The position numbers and the translations under genes are program-made. Under the pieces are notes generated by a model that was given only the letters and a program-made list of their open reading frames with translations, made no database searches and was not told the DNA's origin. This document shows, piece by piece, positions 32,994 to 41,755 of a stretch of 64,000 bases of DNA. Source of the DNA: Escherichia coli (GTDB lineage Bacteria > Pseudomonadota > Gammaproteobacteria > Enterobacterales > Enterobacteriaceae). The stretch lies in NCBI RefSeq assembly GCF_044324875.1, contig NZ_CP172185.1. The stretch is one strand, 5' to 3'. How positions within the stretch are numbered: position 1 is the stretch's first letter; every line of letters starts with the position of its first letter.

Positions 32994-34646
<1,653 letters not shown>

Positions 34647-34718: not shown

Positions 34719-36032
<1,314 letters not shown>

Positions 36033-36050
36033 GTCTGACTTTATCTGATT

Positions 36051-36084
36051 AAAAAATGCCAGCCTTCGGGCTGGCATTTTTTAT
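36051..36084. terminator. Bidirectional rho-independent terminator between convergent eno and the TPM operon (A6-TGCCAGCC-TTCG-GGCTGGCA-T6)
   Basis: 8-bp GC stem with a tetraloop, flanked by an A-run and a T-run. Confidence 0.75.
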
Positions 36085-36091
36085 GGTTGAG

Positions 36092-36985
36092 TTACCAGCG
36101 ACCGGACGCGCCGCCACCGCCAGAAGAACCGCCCCCGCCGCTAAATCCGCCGCCACTTGAGCCGCCACCGGAAGAGGATGAAGAAGAACCTTTTCTTGAA
36201 GCTCTTTCTTTACTGAGTTTTTTGTATTTGGCGCGTAGCTTTTTATTAACGATAAGCCAAAAAATAACCAGTGGTACGATAGCAAAAGGCGTGAGCATAC
36301 CGCAGGCAACGATTAAATTCGTCCATGGTCCTGGCTCGGCAACATAGAGGAATACCATCCCATAAATTCCGCCAGTCAGTGCTATCCAGGGTAAATTCGA
36401 CGGATCGGTAAAAACAATAAAATATGAAAGTACCGCCAGCAATATAATTACAGCAAGCGATAATGGAATAGGGGGATTGATACTGTAATAATCCCCCCTG
36501 TCTTCCGGTAATTCACCATTCAACAGAAGCGCTCCGATATTTTCGCTTGCCAGTGTTAACCCACCCATCAAGTCATCACTTTTGAAGGCTGGGATTAATA
36601 TATTACGGATAATCTTCGCTGCTTGCAGATCGGTAACCACCCCTTCCAGCCCGTAGCCCACTTCTATACGGACAGCATGATCTTCCCAGGCAACCAGCAG
36701 TAAAATACCATCGTTTCGCTGCTTATCTCCCAGTTTCCAGCTATCAAAAACGCGTGTTGCATATTGTTCAATGGTATCGTCTCCGGTGGATGGCACTATT
36801 AATACGGCGACCTGGGCCCGTGTTTTTTGTGTGATATCCTGCAGCTGTTGTGTCAGTGATTGTTGTTCAGACGTGCTTAACGTACCAGTAATATCGGTCA
36901 CCTGTTGGCGCAGCTCCGGCACAGCAATTTGCTGGGCAAGCCCAGGAAGGCACCATAAAGTAAGTAGAAAAAAGATTAAGCGCAT
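36092..36985 (-). CDS. TPM-domain (YgcG-like) membrane protein, paralog A: signal peptide, periplasmic TPM domain, 3 TM helices, Lys-rich segment, Gly/Ser tail ending SGRW
   Basis: 297 aa; TPM core NDGILLLVAWEDHAVRIEVGYGLEGVVTD; C-terminus GGGSSGGGFSGGGGSSGGGGASGRW. Confidence 0.85.
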   Translation of the reverse strand: MRLIFFLLTLWCLPGLAQQIAVPELRQQVTDITGTLSTSEQQSLTQQLQDITQKTRAQVAVLIVPSTGDDTIEQYATRVFDSWKLGDKQRNDGILLLVAWEDHAVRIEVGYGLEGVVTDLQAAKIIRNILIPAFKSDDLMGGLTLASENIGALLLNGELPEDRGDYYSINPPIPLSLAVIILLAVLSYFIVFTDPSNLPWIALTGGIYGMVFLYVAEPGPWTNLIVACGMLTPFAIVPLVIFWLIVNKKLRAKYKKLSKERASRKGSSSSSSGGGSSGGGFSGGGGSSGGGGASGRW

Positions 36986-36990
36986 AATGA

Positions 36991-38139
36991 TTACCAGCGT
37001 CCGGATGAACCGCCGCCTCCTGAAGAACCACCACCACCGCGGAAAGAATTTCTCGACGAAGAGCGAGAATGAGCATTACGATTCCCCGTTTTCCTGTTGC
37101 TTTTTTCTCCTGACCCCAGTTTAAGATTGCCAGTAAATTTGGCCACAATGATCAGCAGAACTATGCCAGCAATGGTTATTGGGCCGATAAAATGATCAAT
37201 TAGCCCAATAATTGTTGAGATGAATGCAATATCTTTATTACTGGCGAACACCAGGCACCATCCCACAATAATTATCAGCATCACGACAAACAATGAATTT
37301 CGTCCTGATTCACGAACCTGCGGAGTCTTCTTTTGTTTTTTCACTTTAGTGTTTTTATTTTTGGGGGCCAGCATCATAGGAAATGCGCGGCACATATTAA
37401 AAACTACCGCGAGACGCTGCCAGCAGGTTGTTGCTAACAATAAACTAAAACAAACGACCGATACCCGCCGAATGATGACATCGTCCTGAAAGGAGAAAAA
37501 CCAGACCATAGGGGTAATCATCGATATCATCCATATGCCACGCCCTGGGCGGCTGGCAAATCGCCAGAGGACAACGATGGCAACGATCATCAGCAGTGTC
37601 CAGGCAAGACAAGGCAGCGAACGTTGCGGATTAGCAAACAGATGATTGGCTAAAGCATCCAAAGGGCTAAGGTTCGCTTTGATATGGGTAAACTGTGCGA
37701 TGCTTTCAATTCCGCCCGTTAATCCAGCAAAGAGATTGTTTTTTTCGAATTCTGGCTGCATATGGTAACGAACAATTTGCGCAGCTTGTTCCGGCGGCAA
37801 CATCTGTTCCAGTCCATGTCCAATCTTCATTGACGCCAGCCCTTCCGGCCATACGACGAGAATTAAGATACCTTCGCCATATCGCTTCTCTCCAACGGGT
37901 TTCCAGTGATATACCCCGTATCTCTGCGAGGCTGCAAGTTTAATGTTTTTGCCCCCTGTGGTCGGCGTGACCAACACGGCCACCTGGAAGTGGTTTTGCT
38001 GCACGAGAGTCTGTAATTGTTGAGTTAAAGCAGTTTGTTCTTCTGTCGTTAATGTCCCGGTTAAGTCAGTTACTGAAGGCAATTGTTCAGCGAATACCTG
38101 AAAACCGCATAGCATCAGAAGTAAGAGAAAAATACGCAT
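36991..38139 (-). CDS. TPM-domain membrane protein, divergent paralog B, with extended polytopic membrane region and Gly/Ser-SGRW tail
   Basis: 382 aa; signal peptide, divergent TPM-like domain (GILILVVWPEGLASMKIGHGLE), at least 4 TM helices, tail GGGGSSGGGGSSGRW; SD aaggaa upstream. Confidence 0.8.
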   Translation of the reverse strand: MRIFLLLLMLCGFQVFAEQLPSVTDLTGTLTTEEQTALTQQLQTLVQQNHFQVAVLVTPTTGGKNIKLAASQRYGVYHWKPVGEKRYGEGILILVVWPEGLASMKIGHGLEQMLPPEQAAQIVRYHMQPEFEKNNLFAGLTGGIESIAQFTHIKANLSPLDALANHLFANPQRSLPCLAWTLLMIVAIVVLWRFASRPGRGIWMISMITPMVWFFSFQDDVIIRRVSVVCFSLLLATTCWQRLAVVFNMCRAFPMMLAPKNKNTKVKKQKKTPQVRESGRNSLFVVMLIIIVGWCLVFASNKDIAFISTIIGLIDHFIGPITIAGIVLLIIVAKFTGNLKLGSGEKSNRKTGNRNAHSRSSSRNSFRGGGGSSGGGGSSGRW

Positions 38140-38153
38140 ATCAATTCCTTTTG

Positions 38154-39047
38154 TTACCAGCGCCCGGAAGCGCCACCGCCACCAGATGAACCGCCACCAC
38201 CGCTGAAATTGTCATTGTTGAATGAAGAGGATGACGATGATGAATAGTGGGAGGAAGAATTGCTTCTTGTATGGCGTGATGGCTGGTTGGCATCACGCAT
38301 CGAATCCCGAACCTTTTTGCCGAAGGGGGTAAAAGCGATGGCGACAGCCAGGAACGGTGTGGCGAAGCAGAGTAATGTTGCGAGTACTCCCCAGCTTCCG
38401 CTGAAGCCTGCTATAGGTAAAACAAAGGCCAGTACAATAGCTGCGAAGCAAATTACTCCCAGCGTTTTGATATATCCTCTGGCAGAAATAAACGTCAGTA
38501 CTATCGCCCAGACTAACAAAGCCCACCAACCGCTAAAAGGCAAAGGGTGATCGGTCGGTGTTATCGTTGCTAAATTATTCCCCGTCAGACGACTTTCAAT
38601 ATCGCTGATTCCCTTTTGCAAACCACCAGCCAGGTCCCCTTTTTTAAATGCCGGAATAATACTGTTGCGAATAATTTTCCCGGACTGTGCATCCGTAATA
38701 ATACCTTCCAGTCCGTAACCGATTTCAATACGCACGGTATGATCCTGCCAGGCGACTAACAGTAGAACGCCATCATCGTGGTCTTTATCACCCGGTTTCC
38801 AGCTATCGAATACCCGCGTTGCGTACTGCTCGATGGTTTCATCGCCTGTTGTTTCAACCACTAACACGACCAACTGTGCGTTGTTTTTTTGCGTCAGGGC
38901 TTTAATCTGGTTGGTCAGGGTGTTTACTTCACTGTTTGTCAATGTGCCGGTTAAGTCATTCACATACCTGGGTGATTCAGGTACTGGAATTTGTGTGGCA
39001 AACACAGATGAACAGAAGAAAGCCATAAGGAAGATAAAATTTCGCAT
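38154..39047 (-). CDS. TPM-domain (YgcG-like) membrane protein, paralog C, with Gly/Ser-SGRW tail
   Basis: ORF track gives 38154..39077; preferred start is ATG 39047 (MRNFIFLMAFFCSSVFA signal peptide) with SD ggggaag; TPM core DDGVLLLVAWQDHTVRIEIGYGLEGIITD. Confidence 0.85.
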   Translation of the reverse strand: MRNFIFLMAFFCSSVFATQIPVPESPRYVNDLTGTLTNSEVNTLTNQIKALTQKNNAQLVVLVVETTGDETIEQYATRVFDSWKPGDKDHDDGVLLLVAWQDHTVRIEIGYGLEGIITDAQSGKIIRNSIIPAFKKGDLAGGLQKGISDIESRLTGNNLATITPTDHPLPFSGWWALLVWAIVLTFISARGYIKTLGVICFAAIVLAFVLPIAGFSGSWGVLATLLCFATPFLAVAIAFTPFGKKVRDSMRDANQPSRHTRSNSSSHYSSSSSSSFNNDNFSGGGGSSGGGGASGRW

Positions 39048-39060
39048 ATAACTTCCCCGC

Positions 39061-39663
39061 TTAATGCGCATTAGCATTCTGGCTAAAATCTATTATTGGT
39101 GCTTTACTCACAGCTGCGACGTCATCCGGCAAATAATTTTTCTTCGGTGTGTAATCCATGACCTTTGCGGTTAATACAGCGGGGAATTTGCGGATAGTGA
39201 CATTATATTGTTCAATGGCTTTAATATATCTTCCTCGCGCAACGGCAATTCTATTTTCACTTCCTTCGAGCTGTACCATTAAATTTTGATAGAGTTCCTG
39301 AGCTTTTAAATCAGGGTAACGTTCACTAATTATCGTTAACTGACCGAGAGTGCGAGACACCTGCGCCTGGGCTTGTTGCCAGGCTTGTAATTTTTGCGCA
39401 TCTCCCGGAGCTTGCTGAAGATCGCTACTGGCGCGATTAGCCTGGCTACGTGCCAATGTTACGGCTTCCAGTACCTCTTGTTCATGGCTGGAATAACCTT
39501 TAATACTGGCGACAAGATTAGGAATAAGATCGGCGCGACGTTGATATTGATTCAATACCTCAGACCAGGAGGCGTTAACCTGCTCATCATAGGTTTGAAT
39601 ATCGTTATATCCACAGCCTGATAAATTGGCAATAAATATAATTACGATGAATATCCTGAGCAT
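39061..39663 (-). CDS. LemA-family protein, predicted lipoprotein (lipobox LSGC), first gene of the lemA-TPM operon
   Basis: 200 aa; LemA family architecture. Confidence 0.8.
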   Translation of the reverse strand: MLRIFIVIIFIANLSGCGYNDIQTYDEQVNASWSEVLNQYQRRADLIPNLVASIKGYSSHEQEVLEAVTLARSQANRASSDLQQAPGDAQKLQAWQQAQAQVSRTLGQLTIISERYPDLKAQELYQNLMVQLEGSENRIAVARGRYIKAIEQYNVTIRKFPAVLTAKVMDYTPKKNYLPDDVAAVSKAPIIDFSQNANAH

Positions 39664-39835
39664 GTCTATGTCCCTTTTAATTAATTCCTTAAAACATAAT
39701 ACGCCGCTTCATTTTATTCTTTATGATCTCATCCACTTTTTGCCTTAAACCTGCCTGTAACAGAATGTTAATAAGACATGATTGTTGTGGCAGGATCTGC
39801 AATAATTAACAATTATCCACTTCACAGAGAATGCT

Positions 39836-40845: not shown

Positions 40846-41118
40846 GAGTTCCCCGCGCCAGCGGGGATAAACCGCTTCATCTGTCGGGCTAACTGGACAA
40901 AGAAACGAGTTCCCCGCGCCAGCGGGGATAAACCGTCGGTTTGACATCAAAGAAGCCATCAATCAGGGAGTTCCCCGCGCCAGCGGGGATAAACCGGTCT
41001 GGCCATAGGAACAAAGAAATTTGTCTTTGAGTTCCCCACGTCAGCGGGGATAAACCGGACACAGAGCGCCGCTATAGCGCCTATGCCAAGAGTTCCCCGC
41101 GCCAGCGGGGATAAACCA
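40846..41118 (+). CRISPR. Type I-E CRISPR array (CRISPR2.1 position): 5 repeats of 29 bp (GAGTTCCCCGCGCCAGCGGGGATAAACCG) and 4 spacers of 32 bp each
   Basis: Repeats at 40846, 40907, 40968, 41029 (variant CCCCACGTCAG) and 41090 (terminal, ...AAACCA); spacers at 40875-40906, 40936-40967, 40997-41028 and 41058-41089; regular 61-bp periodicity. Confidence 0.95.
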
Positions 41119-41586: not shown

Positions 41587-41709
41587 ACAGGGATAAACCG
41601 AACTAGTTAAAGTTTTTATTATGTTCCCTGCATCAGCGGGGATAAACCGGACTTGTTATCATTTTTTAAGTTGTCGAACTTATGTTCCCCGCGTCAGCGG
41701 GGATAACCA
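41587..41709 (+). CRISPR. Degenerate mini-array (CRISPR2.2-2.3-like remnant): truncated repeat, then 2 variant repeats (ATGTTCCCTGCATCAGCGGGGATAAACCG; ATGTTCCCCGCGTCAGCGGGGATAACC) with one 32-bp spacer and one about 20-bp spacer
   Basis: Repeat-like units at 41587-41600 (partial), 41621-41649 and 41682-41709; spacer at 41650-41681 is 32 bp. Confidence 0.7.
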
Positions 41710-41755
41710 TTCAGGTATGTTCAGGCCGGGCAGTTTCCCGCCCGGTCTTCCTCAC

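Follow-up and report, generated by a model that had tools for sequence, protein, structure and literature searches.

The locus between eno and queE in Escherichia coli raises the question of why three neighbouring TPM proteins end in almost the same residues: is the likeness a matter of DNA exchanged between tandem genes or of protein sequence kept by selection, and what would such an ending do? In the stretch of 64,000 nucleotides analysed here (the window), the gene order is pyrG-eno-[TPM_C, TPM_B, TPM_A, lemA]-queE, with the four bracketed genes on the minus strand:

36092 to 36985, minus strand: TPM_C, ORF of 297 aa (PF04536, E = 6.9e-39)
36991 to 38139, minus strand: TPM_B, ORF of 382 aa (PF04536, E = 5.1e-20)
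38154 to 39047, minus strand: TPM_A, 297 aa from the ATG at 39047 (PF04536, E = 8.2e-41)
39061 to 39663, minus strand: lemA, 200 aa, first gene of the operon (PF04011, E = 2e-48, 164 bits)

All three TPM proteins pass the 22.1-bit cut-off for PF04536, the Pfam TPM domain (133 bits for TPM_C, 72 for TPM_B, and 139 for TPM_A), and the domain has PDB matches with E values of 4.5e-23 to 6e-20, the solved structures being 7TBR, BA41 (5ANP), and PG0361 (2KW7). TPM_C is composed of a signal peptide, the TPM domain, three membrane helices, a Lys/Arg-rich linker, and a Gly tail. TPM_B is the most divergent paralog, with additional membrane segments in the alignment and a tail ending in ...FRGGGGSSGGGGSSGRW. 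The open frame of TPM_A reaches 39077, and its orthologue P0001 has 297 aa. With lemA directly upstream of the TPM genes and on the same strand, the cluster has the lemA-TPM operon arrangement, and this operon, the domain, the architecture, and the C-terminal tail are all shared with YgcG-type (COG1512, PF04536) proteins. All of these genes belong to an already known family and are annotated as such. This E. coli type has three tail-bearing paralogs in tandem, whereas elsewhere one tail-bearing gene is commoner. There it stands alone or next to a second TPM gene, which is short and tail-less.

Psb32/TLP18.3, involved in photosystem II repair, has the TPM fold on the non-cytoplasmic side, like the TPM proteins here, and to our knowledge a Gly tail has not been described for it. 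Scores against the Psb32 equivalog (NCBIfam NF047379) were 33.6 and 35 bits, below the cut-off of 160, with no match for TPM_B. The anti-phage defence models (PADLOC) gave no meaningful match, the single one being to TPM_B with 13.8 bits (E = 0.007), and the other three proteins had none. A match of TPM_C to PF25184 (YxzE-like bacteriocin), with 23.6 bits against a cut-off of 40, fell in the Gly/Ser region and was rejected as low complexity. [quoted passage not shown] Its operon includes PspA and a band-7 protein, whereas the E. coli TPM proteins are accompanied by LemA.

The three proteins terminate in ...GGGFSGGGGSSGGGGASGRW (TPM_C), ...NSFRGGGGSSGGGGSSGRW (TPM_B), and ...DNFSGGGGSSGGGGASGRW (TPM_A), with the common ending F(S/R)GGGGSSGGGG(A/S)SGRW, which is encoded as follows:

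36092 to 36145, minus strand: TPM_C tail, stop codon plus 17 codons for FSGGGGSSGGGGASGRW
36991 to 37044, minus strand: TPM_B tail, stop codon plus 17 codons for FRGGGGSSGGGGSSGRW
38154 to 38207, minus strand: TPM_A tail, stop codon plus 17 codons for FSGGGGSSGGGGASGRW

Over the last 17 residues TPM_A and TPM_C are identical (17/17), and TPM_B agrees at 15/17. Outside the tails the proteins are 36-42% identical, with membrane regions that cannot be aligned. The likeness of the tails far exceeds chance. A previous examination of this DNA from its letters and open reading frames (the sequence-only reading) had pointed to these near-identical Gly/Ser tails, and rightly so; the intervals it assigned to them are the stop codon and the final ~16 codons of each gene.

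That reading had also described the DNA behind the tails as near-identical, which is not the case. Pairwise identity of the tail-coding DNA is 74-83%, and the longest exact run is 9-10 nt in register (9-11 nt in any register). Where the tails share an amino acid, the codon is identical at a frequency of 0.36-0.50, much as in the TPM domain (0.36-0.42), with 0.29 expected from genome codon usage. Comparison of whole genes gave longest exact shared strings of 13 nt (C/A) and 12 nt (B/A), both in the TPM core. Efficient RecA-dependent recombination in E. coli needs ~23-27 bp of uninterrupted identity, and exact runs shared by the genes in the window do not exceed 9-13 nt. It is very improbable that the tails are alike through gene conversion or recent duplication, that is, as a DNA-level phenomenon. 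Such an origin would suit the tails being far more alike, as protein, than any other segment of the three genes, and a real A/B tail crossover is known from O157-type genomes (see below). Nevertheless, synonymous matches are no commoner in the tails than in the rest of the gene, the exact runs between tails are short, and the peptide is conserved across phyla, beyond the reach of conversion between these genes. We can rather assume that the three paralogs would be old duplicates, with tails held alike by purifying selection on the amino acid sequence, and that the resemblance of their tail DNA would be what is expected of any GGN-rich sequence coding for the same peptide.

The conservation of the tail was assessed with phmmer, using the TPM domain alone as the query (tail excluded) against 1.84 billion representatives. 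The 22,327 cluster representatives that matched indicate that the TPM/LemA system is very widespread. Our survey covers the best 150 of these 22,327 matches, those closest to E. coli TPM_A, with proteins of at least 250 aa taken as full length. Among these best 150, the motif [FYW]-x-GGGG-x-[SF]-GGGG-[AS]-S-G-x-W ends 103 of the 118 full-length proteins (3 more terminate in F or Y), six Gly positions are invariant, and Ala/Ser at -5 and Ser at -4 reach 100% and 97%. Position -2 in the same set is occupied by R (39%), S (32%), or G (11%), so that the ending SGRW singled out by the sequence-only reading is true of the three paralogs, but its Arg is variable family-wide. Aromatic residues stand at -17, often at -10, and at -1. 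At 80 distant genome loci, which span Gamma-, Beta-, and Alphaproteobacteria, Bacteroidota, Nitrospirota, Leptospirales, and Ignavibacteriales, 79 of 115 complete TPM ORFs carry the tail, and LemA is immediately upstream at 64 of the 80; the tail is thus present across phyla outside this locus, and its absence there, which the sequence-only reading had named as evidence to the contrary, is not observed. The short cytoplasmic TPM paralog of other bacteria lacks it. When metagenomes were scanned for DNA encoding GGGGA[ST]GxW followed by a stop, 122 ORFs were returned, 100 of them with a TPM domain. Most of the remaining 22 are cut at a contig edge. A second protein search, with a TPM-domain profile, yielded mostly short fragments and added little.

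The YgcG-type C-terminal motif GGGG-x-[SF]-GGGG-[AS]-S-G-x-W is present in all three paralogs. The tail is probably the standard C-terminal signature of membrane-anchored YgcG-type TPM proteins and not a peculiarity of this locus, with selection at the protein level keeping the likeness. As the tail is the ordinary ending of the family, the locus itself is not new. In the literature on TPM, LemA, YgcG, and COG1512/DUF477 proteins, we found no paper discussing this nearly invariant C-terminal peptide. There is next to no probability that the tail is low-complexity sequence without a function, left by slippage in GGN repeats: the Gly/Ser run upstream of the motif does vary in length, and one GGGGSS unit is missing from the TPM_A orthologues of E. 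albertii, but conservation is position specific across phyla (Ala/Ser at -5, Ser at -4, Trp at -1) despite saturated synonymous sites, and the tail is tightly coupled to the TPM domain, as seen in the metagenome scan.

The suggestion that the tail DNA acts as a recombination substrate between the tandem genes survives in part. Ten E. coli genomes (eight are listed, either O157(:H7) or without a label) have a 1,163-bp deletion removing exactly TPM_B, with its junction at a 16-nt exact match, GAACCGCCACCACCGC, within the tail-coding DNA of TPM_A and TPM_B. The equivalent sites in the window are:

38188 to 38203, unstranded: O157 crossover string GAACCGCCACCACCGC in the TPM_A tail DNA, 16 nt
37025 to 37040, unstranded: corresponding site in the TPM_B tail DNA, here GAACCACCACCACCGC, with one mismatch against TPM_A

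This single mismatch reduces the exact A/B match in the window to only 10 nt; in O157:H7 the TPM_B copy of the site is identical to that of TPM_A over all 16 nt. Deletion of TPM_B at such a match fits short-homology deletion. A crossover between the A and B tails has therefore removed a gene in ten genomes, but the near-identity and the 23-27 bp called for by homologous recombination are absent. Deletions from tail to tail between A and C or between B and C numbered 0 among 5,426 genomes. The G-rich tail DNA supplies short microhomologies, one of which has deleted TPM_B at least once, in O157-type genomes. This is a small-scale record of the loss of a tandem paralog through a G-rich coding repeat.

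Unequal crossing over through the tails had also been put forward as the route from a three-gene ancestor to the single ygcG of K-12, which occupies the same slot as TPM_C. K-12 YgcG (with YqcG) is like the window genes in its eno-queE slot, its tail (13/16 tail codons identical between TPM_C and ygcG), and its 3' flank (96% DNA identity). It is unlike them in its low identity to TPM_C (42%), in a locus without lemA and the A and B genes, and in the presence of yqcG with a relic of lemA. Two flanks are common to the window and the K-12-type locus:

35900 to 36173, unstranded: left flank, 96% identity
39631 to 39835, unstranded: right flank, the queE-lemA intergenic region plus the first ~11 lemA codons

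The left flank holds the 3' end of eno, the terminator, and the final stretch of TPM_C/ygcG (~27 codons), and identity collapses past ~36173. Inside K-12 yqcG a relic of the 5' end of lemA (codons 1-11) is retained, which implies that the K-12 locus descends from a lemA-containing locus. In search of the right end of the K-12 deletion, local alignment of the 3' part of yqcG with the 3' ends of lemA, TPM_A, and TPM_B gave scores at the level of shuffled sequences.

The 42% identity of K-12 YgcG to TPM_C extends from end to end, compared with 37% to TPM_A and 31% to TPM_B. In a sliding-window comparison with the three paralogs, YgcG is nearest to TPM_C throughout the TPM domain, and we found no switch point that would mark a chimera junction. 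An origin by unequal crossing over is thus contradicted, since the sequence-only reading had itself named an end-to-end alignment to one paralog, with no junction, as evidence to the contrary. Judged by these alignments, K-12 ygcG is a divergent allele of the eno-proximal TPM_C and not a tail-mediated chimera. There is very little likelihood that it arose by fusion of an upstream gene body to the TPM_C tail, even though its tail and eno flank are 96% identical to their TPM_C counterparts and the ancestor of its locus contained lemA. Besides the lack of a switch point and the closeness to TPM_C, the loss of lemA in the K-12 type is not an outcome of a tail-to-tail crossover, strain MEI3O-23 carries the K-12-type sequence as the third gene of an intact lemA-A-B-X array, and the 5,426 genomes hold no A/C or B/C tail junction. 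A mosaic allele in L085 is part of the evidence for ygcG as an allele of TPM_C. The eno-queE slot of E. coli houses several deeply divergent alleles.

As for the position of the tail in the cell, hydropathy and an AlphaFold model of modest confidence give the TPM proteins a signal peptide followed by the TPM domain, with the membrane segments C-terminal to the domain. In the model of TPM_A the helices cover residues 183-199, 203-222, and 228-263, a count of three that is only moderately secure given a mean pLDDT of 58; in distant homologues a simple hydropathy count, too crude to rely on, gives two segments as often as three. The 20 residues after the last helix contain 5-8 Lys or Arg (8 in TPM_C), and the last 44 residues of the model (264-307) have a pLDDT of 33-40. 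Among homologues the stretch that links the last helix to the tail ranges from 24 to about 300 residues. The protein would thus consist of a periplasmic TPM domain, three membrane helices (more in TPM_B), a disordered linker rich in Lys/Arg and Ser, and then the tail, with the motif [FYW]-[SGR]-G-G-G-G-x-[SF]-G-G-G-G-[AS]-S-G-x-W forming a free C-terminus on the cytoplasmic side. The predicted topology and the model place the tail, disordered, in the cytoplasm, because it lies downstream of the third membrane helix and a Lys/Arg-rich stretch. The N-terminus of LemA, MLRIFIVIIFIANLSGC, reads as including a lipobox, and the identical lipobox is found in four distant LemA proteins. Such a lipoprotein signal would put LemA on the periplasmic side, across the membrane from the tail, so that LemA, named in the sequence-only reading as a possible docking partner, is unlikely to be one.

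The proposal that the tail is a docking motif fares better in a modified form: a conserved and presumably functional tail exists beyond the locus, but the conserved unit is GGGG-[AS]-S-G-x-W and not the terminal Arg-Trp. The conserved peptide is at the extreme C-terminus of a disordered segment, as in a docking motif. The E. coli SSB C-terminal tip and the FtsZ C-terminal peptide are docking tips of this kind on flexible linkers, and by analogy they share with the tail a disordered Gly/Ser-rich tether, a short conserved end, and a last hydrophobic residue that, with its free carboxylate, is likely the part recognised; there is no sequence relationship, and the invariant glycines are a feature of the tail. 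We tentatively regard a C-terminal docking motif for a cytoplasmic or inner-leaflet partner as the most likely role. The tail would work as a flexibly tethered short linear motif: a conserved partner in the cytoplasm or at the inner leaflet would recognise the invariant glycines together with the terminal Trp and its free carboxylate, and this binding would connect the periplasmic LemA/TPM module to the cytoplasm. Invariant glycines are odd for a simple docking peptide and could mean self-association or binding at the membrane interface.

More doubtful is the broader idea that the 17-residue tail is a universal cytoplasmic docking or signalling peptide, coupling the LemA/TPM module to one conserved cytoplasmic partner. 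If true, an envelope system that is very widespread would have a link across the membrane that has not been described before. Candidate partners include the short cytoplasmic TPM paralog found in many operons, a membrane-repair protein of the PspA/ESCRT-III type, and a membrane protease. A 17-residue peptide with a free C-terminal Trp makes an easy pull-down bait and point-mutant target.

A structural role is an unlikely alternative, in which aromatics and glycine runs would lie at the inner-leaflet interface, or the tails would pack between subunits in a polyglycine-II-like or glycine-zipper-like manner and hold an oligomer together. The six invariant glycines and the spacing of the aromatics agree with it, as does the thought that TPM proteins aid membrane-complex assembly (PMC11237479; bioRxiv 10.1101/2025.01.14.632903). 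However, the tail is not ordered in the monomer model, and a linker of such variable length suits a tether better than a fixed packing element. It is improbable that the tail serves a cytoplasmic or membrane protease as a C-terminal tag for degradation or quality control. The tail has the layout of bacterial C-terminal degrons, being conserved, disordered, and placed at the very end of the protein with a hydrophobic residue left free; the operon, however, has no protease gene, and the peptide is unlike known tags such as the ...LAA ending of ssrA. A docking motif is still the role that we prefer.

Finally, the neighbourhood of the TPM_C tail has some minor features. A plus-strand ORF at 36087-36347 is not a gene; it is proline rich because it reads GGN codons in antisense. 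Tandem Repeats Finder reported zero arrays between 36000 and 43500. A consensus terminator scan did not list any hairpin between eno and TPM_C, but direct folding revealed one:

36050 to 36083, unstranded: hairpin with an A-run and a T-run on its flanks, fold energy -23.5 kcal/mol, z = -5.8

Located in the gap where eno and TPM_C converge, this hairpin resembles a bidirectional terminator.

The four minus-strand genes lying between eno and queE are lemA, the first gene of the operon, and three tandem TPM paralogs.

33009-34646, plus strand: pyrG, ORF
34734-36032, plus strand: eno, ORF
36092-36985, minus strand: TPM_C, ORF with a match to Pfam PF04536
36991-38139, minus strand: TPM_B, ORF with a match to Pfam PF04536
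38154-39047 (open frame up to 39077), minus strand: TPM_A, ORF with a match to Pfam PF04536
39061-39663, minus strand: lemA, ORF with a match to Pfam PF04011
39836-40507, plus strand: queE, ORF

In RefSeq, lemA is annotated as 'LemA family protein' and each of the three paralogs as 'TPM domain-containing / YgcG family protein'; with genes and family already known and annotated, the feature itself is ordinary. What appears unstudied is the nearly invariant 17-residue ending of this very widespread and functionally obscure envelope family, of which no mention was found in the literature accessible to searching. This tail is a conserved and probably functional motif, and its DNA is able to mediate paralog loss. 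Regarding the gene calls, the longest TPM_A ORF (38154-39077) starts at 39077, overlapping lemA; the 297-aa orthologues point to the ATG at 39047 as the real start, 13 nt past the lemA stop, which is also the spacing between yqcG and ygcG in K-12. Between the convergent eno and TPM_C, a strong hairpin at 36050-36083 (-23.5 kcal/mol, z = -5.8), with an A-run on one side and a T-run on the other, is likely a bidirectional terminator and lies within the flank that K-12 also has.

The three proteins end in ...GGGFSGGGGSSGGGGASGRW (TPM_C), ...NSFRGGGGSSGGGGSSGRW (TPM_B), and ...DNFSGGGGSSGGGGASGRW (TPM_A). As their remaining sequences are only 36-42% identical, with membrane regions that cannot be aligned, the shared tail is not a product of chance. 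The sequence-only reading had described the DNA coding for it, i.e., the stop codon and final ~16 codons of each TPM gene, as nearly identical too, but the match holds for the proteins and not for the DNA, with a pairwise identity of 74-83% and longest exact runs of 9-10 nt in register and 9-11 nt in any register. At positions with the same amino acid, identical codons were used in 36-50% of the cases in the tails, no different from the 36-42% of the TPM-domain part and near the 29% that codon usage alone predicts. The longest exact strings common to the genes of the C/A and B/A pairs are found in the TPM core, outside the tail. Given the short exact runs and a codon matching no higher than that of the TPM domain, the DNA likeness follows from identical Gly-rich peptides (GGN codons); neither gene conversion nor recent duplication is indicated by the tail DNA identity, exact runs, or codon matching of the three genes.

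The tail extends far beyond this locus. A phmmer search of 1.84 billion cluster representatives with TPM_A residues 30-170, a query without the tail, gave 22,327 matches. The best 150 of them include 118 new representatives with a length of at least 250 aa, of which 103 have the same C-terminal tail and 3 others finish in F or Y. The motif of these tails is [FYW]-[SGR]-G-G-G-G-x-[SF]-G-G-G-G-[AS]-S-G-x-W, with six invariant Gly positions, Ser at -4 in 97%, and Ala (88%) or Ser (12%) at -5. Position -2 varies among the same tails (R, 39%; S, 32%; G, 11%), which makes the terminal Arg-Trp, previously taken as the key unit, a detail of the lineage. Retrieval with a TPM-domain profile provided 80 named-genome loci from Gamma-, Beta-, and Alphaproteobacteria, Bacteroidota, Nitrospirota, Leptospirales, and Ignavibacteriales, with the tail present in 79 of their 115 complete TPM ORFs. 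In 64 of the loci, lemA immediately precedes the TPM gene, and the operon usually begins with lemA followed by the tail-bearing TPM gene. In the opposite direction, scanning metagenome contigs for DNA coding for GGGGA[ST]GxW plus a stop recovered 122 ORFs. A TPM domain was present in 100 of them, and of the remaining 22 most are truncated at a contig edge. Together, the three surveys indicate that tail and TPM domain are tightly coupled, and the earlier proposal of a conserved, probably functional tail is borne out. In E. albertii, the TPM_A orthologues (proteins P0021-P0025) have a tail shorter by exactly one GGGGSS unit (…FSGGGASGRW), so the double Gly4 repeat is not strictly required and is prone to slippage. 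Half of the LemA loci (32/64) continue with a short second TPM protein (~165 aa), without signal peptide or tail and with a conserved C terminus of its own, NELPDxPVVL; it is presumably cytoplasmic. Its gene is the third of many lemA-TPM operons in other bacteria (loci L050, 4811-5308; L009, 4832-5332; L052, 4772-5269; and others), whereas the E. coli locus lacks it.

The N-terminal signal peptide of each TPM protein places the TPM domain in the periplasm. Three hydrophobic helices follow (183-199, 203-222, and 228-263 in the AlphaFold model of TPM_A), a count that is only moderately secure as the model has low overall confidence (mean pLDDT, 58), and after them come 5-8 Lys/Arg within 20 residues. 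Under the positive-inside rule, a Lys/Arg-rich flank marks the cytoplasmic side, and this stretch after the last helix therefore points to a cytoplasmic C terminus. The last 44 residues of the TPM_A model have a pLDDT of 33-40, that is, predicted disorder, so we infer a tail that would be cytoplasmic and disordered in the monomer. LemA had been suggested as its partner, but the LemA N terminus in the window, MLRIFIVIIFIANLSGC, includes a lipobox, also present in the LemA proteins of four distant loci (Bradyrhizobium, Nitrosospira, Nitrospirota, and Pseudomonas). LemA is thus a periplasmic-side lipoprotein, not easily within reach of a cytoplasmic tail and an unlikely partner for it. The lipoprotein signal (residues 1-17, window 39613-39663, …IANLSGC) conflicts with the older prediction, given in the Pfam family text, of a cytoplasmic C-terminal domain for LemA.

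The tail peptide, with its position-specific conservation coupled to the TPM domain, sits after a variable low-complexity linker of 24 to about 300 residues. The C-terminal peptides of SSB and FtsZ work as docking motifs on flexible tethers, and by analogy we tentatively propose that the TPM tail could act in the same mode, in which case its partner would be a conserved one of the cytoplasm or inner leaflet, and the binding would connect the periplasmic LemA/TPM module with the cytoplasm. That its Gly/aromatic pattern serves instead a structural or membrane-interface role seems unlikely to us, and that it is a degradation tag, quite improbable. TPM domains have been viewed as helping to assemble membrane-linked complexes, not as phosphatases (PMC11237479; bioRxiv 10.1101/2025.01.14.632903).

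The tail DNA had also been put forward as a recombination substrate between the paralogs, and this was confirmed for one of the three pairs. All E. coli genomes were searched for three artificial junction sequences unique to tail-to-tail deletions; the A/B junction was present in 10, the eight matches listed being O157(:H7) or unlabelled strains, and those of A/C and B/C were found in none. The ten genomes lack TPM_B through a deletion of 1,163 bp. In one of them, FORC_044, comparison with a normal O157:H7 locus shows that precisely TPM_B has been lost, with the crossover inside a 16-nt exact match of A and B tail DNA, GAACCGCCACCACCGC (3186-3201 in L206; 1505-1520 and 2668-2683 in L207, the two loci compared), leaving the hybrid tail ...FSGGGGSSGGGGSSVRW. 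The B copy of the window is one mismatch off (37025-37040 versus 38188-38203), with an exact A/B match of only 10 nt. Tail-mediated paralog deletion is thus real but rare, dependent on short homology, and without a part in how K-12 ygcG arose. TPM_A of O157:H7 also has a premature stop codon (VLAT*LCF).

The eno-queE slot (window 36033-39835; compared in loci L001, L002, L003, L084, and L085) is highly polymorphic in E. coli. Among 5,426 complete genomes, 3,924 have ygcG and the small gene yqcG in it and 1,102 the four-gene array, further alleles being IS1-associated deletions and a lemA-TPM_A pair with a 120-aa membrane ORF, unrelated to the TPM genes, behind it. The identity of K-12 YgcG is 42% with TPM_C, 37% with TPM_A, and 31% with TPM_B, and along the TPM domain no switch point was found, C being closer throughout. 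The tails of TPM_C and K-12 ygcG share 13 of 16 codons. In MEI3O-23 (L085, 4558-5430), lemA-A-B is followed by a mosaic gene with a C-type 5' end and 750 nt of K-12 type at the 3' end, the switch falling within the conserved TPM core, so TPM_C and K-12 ygcG behave as alleles despite being 42% identical. Accordingly, K-12 ygcG is an allele of the third gene that has diverged deeply and not, as had been suggested, a tail-to-tail fusion produced by unequal crossing over in a three-gene ancestor. K-12-type and array-type DNAs are 96% identical over 35900-36173 (eno, the terminator, and the final ~27 codons), after which similarity collapses and resumes at 39631. The first ~11 codons of lemA persist inside K-12 yqcG (window 39631-39663; L001, 3519-3584), read as VKTFTKIIFIF, so the K-12 type descends from a lemA-bearing locus. 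It arose by loss of the DNA from the lemA 5' end to where the final TPM gene begins, an event whose right end was sought and not located. By its sequence, yqcG looks like a remnant of the deleted lemA; the relic is the lemA signal-peptide region, in a 46-aa product named 'cell envelope stress response protein.'

A sigma-S ChIP-seq peak has been reported in the K-12 queE/ygcG intergenic region (PMC4447067). The window conserves the queE-side intergenic region holding this peak, and sigma-S regulation common to both loci is plausible on this basis. Just downstream of queE, there is a CRISPR array (40846-41118 and 41618-41710) with type I-E-like repeats, GAGTTCCCCGCGCCAGCGGGGATAAACCG, in five copies at a 61-nt spacing and two degenerate copies further on.
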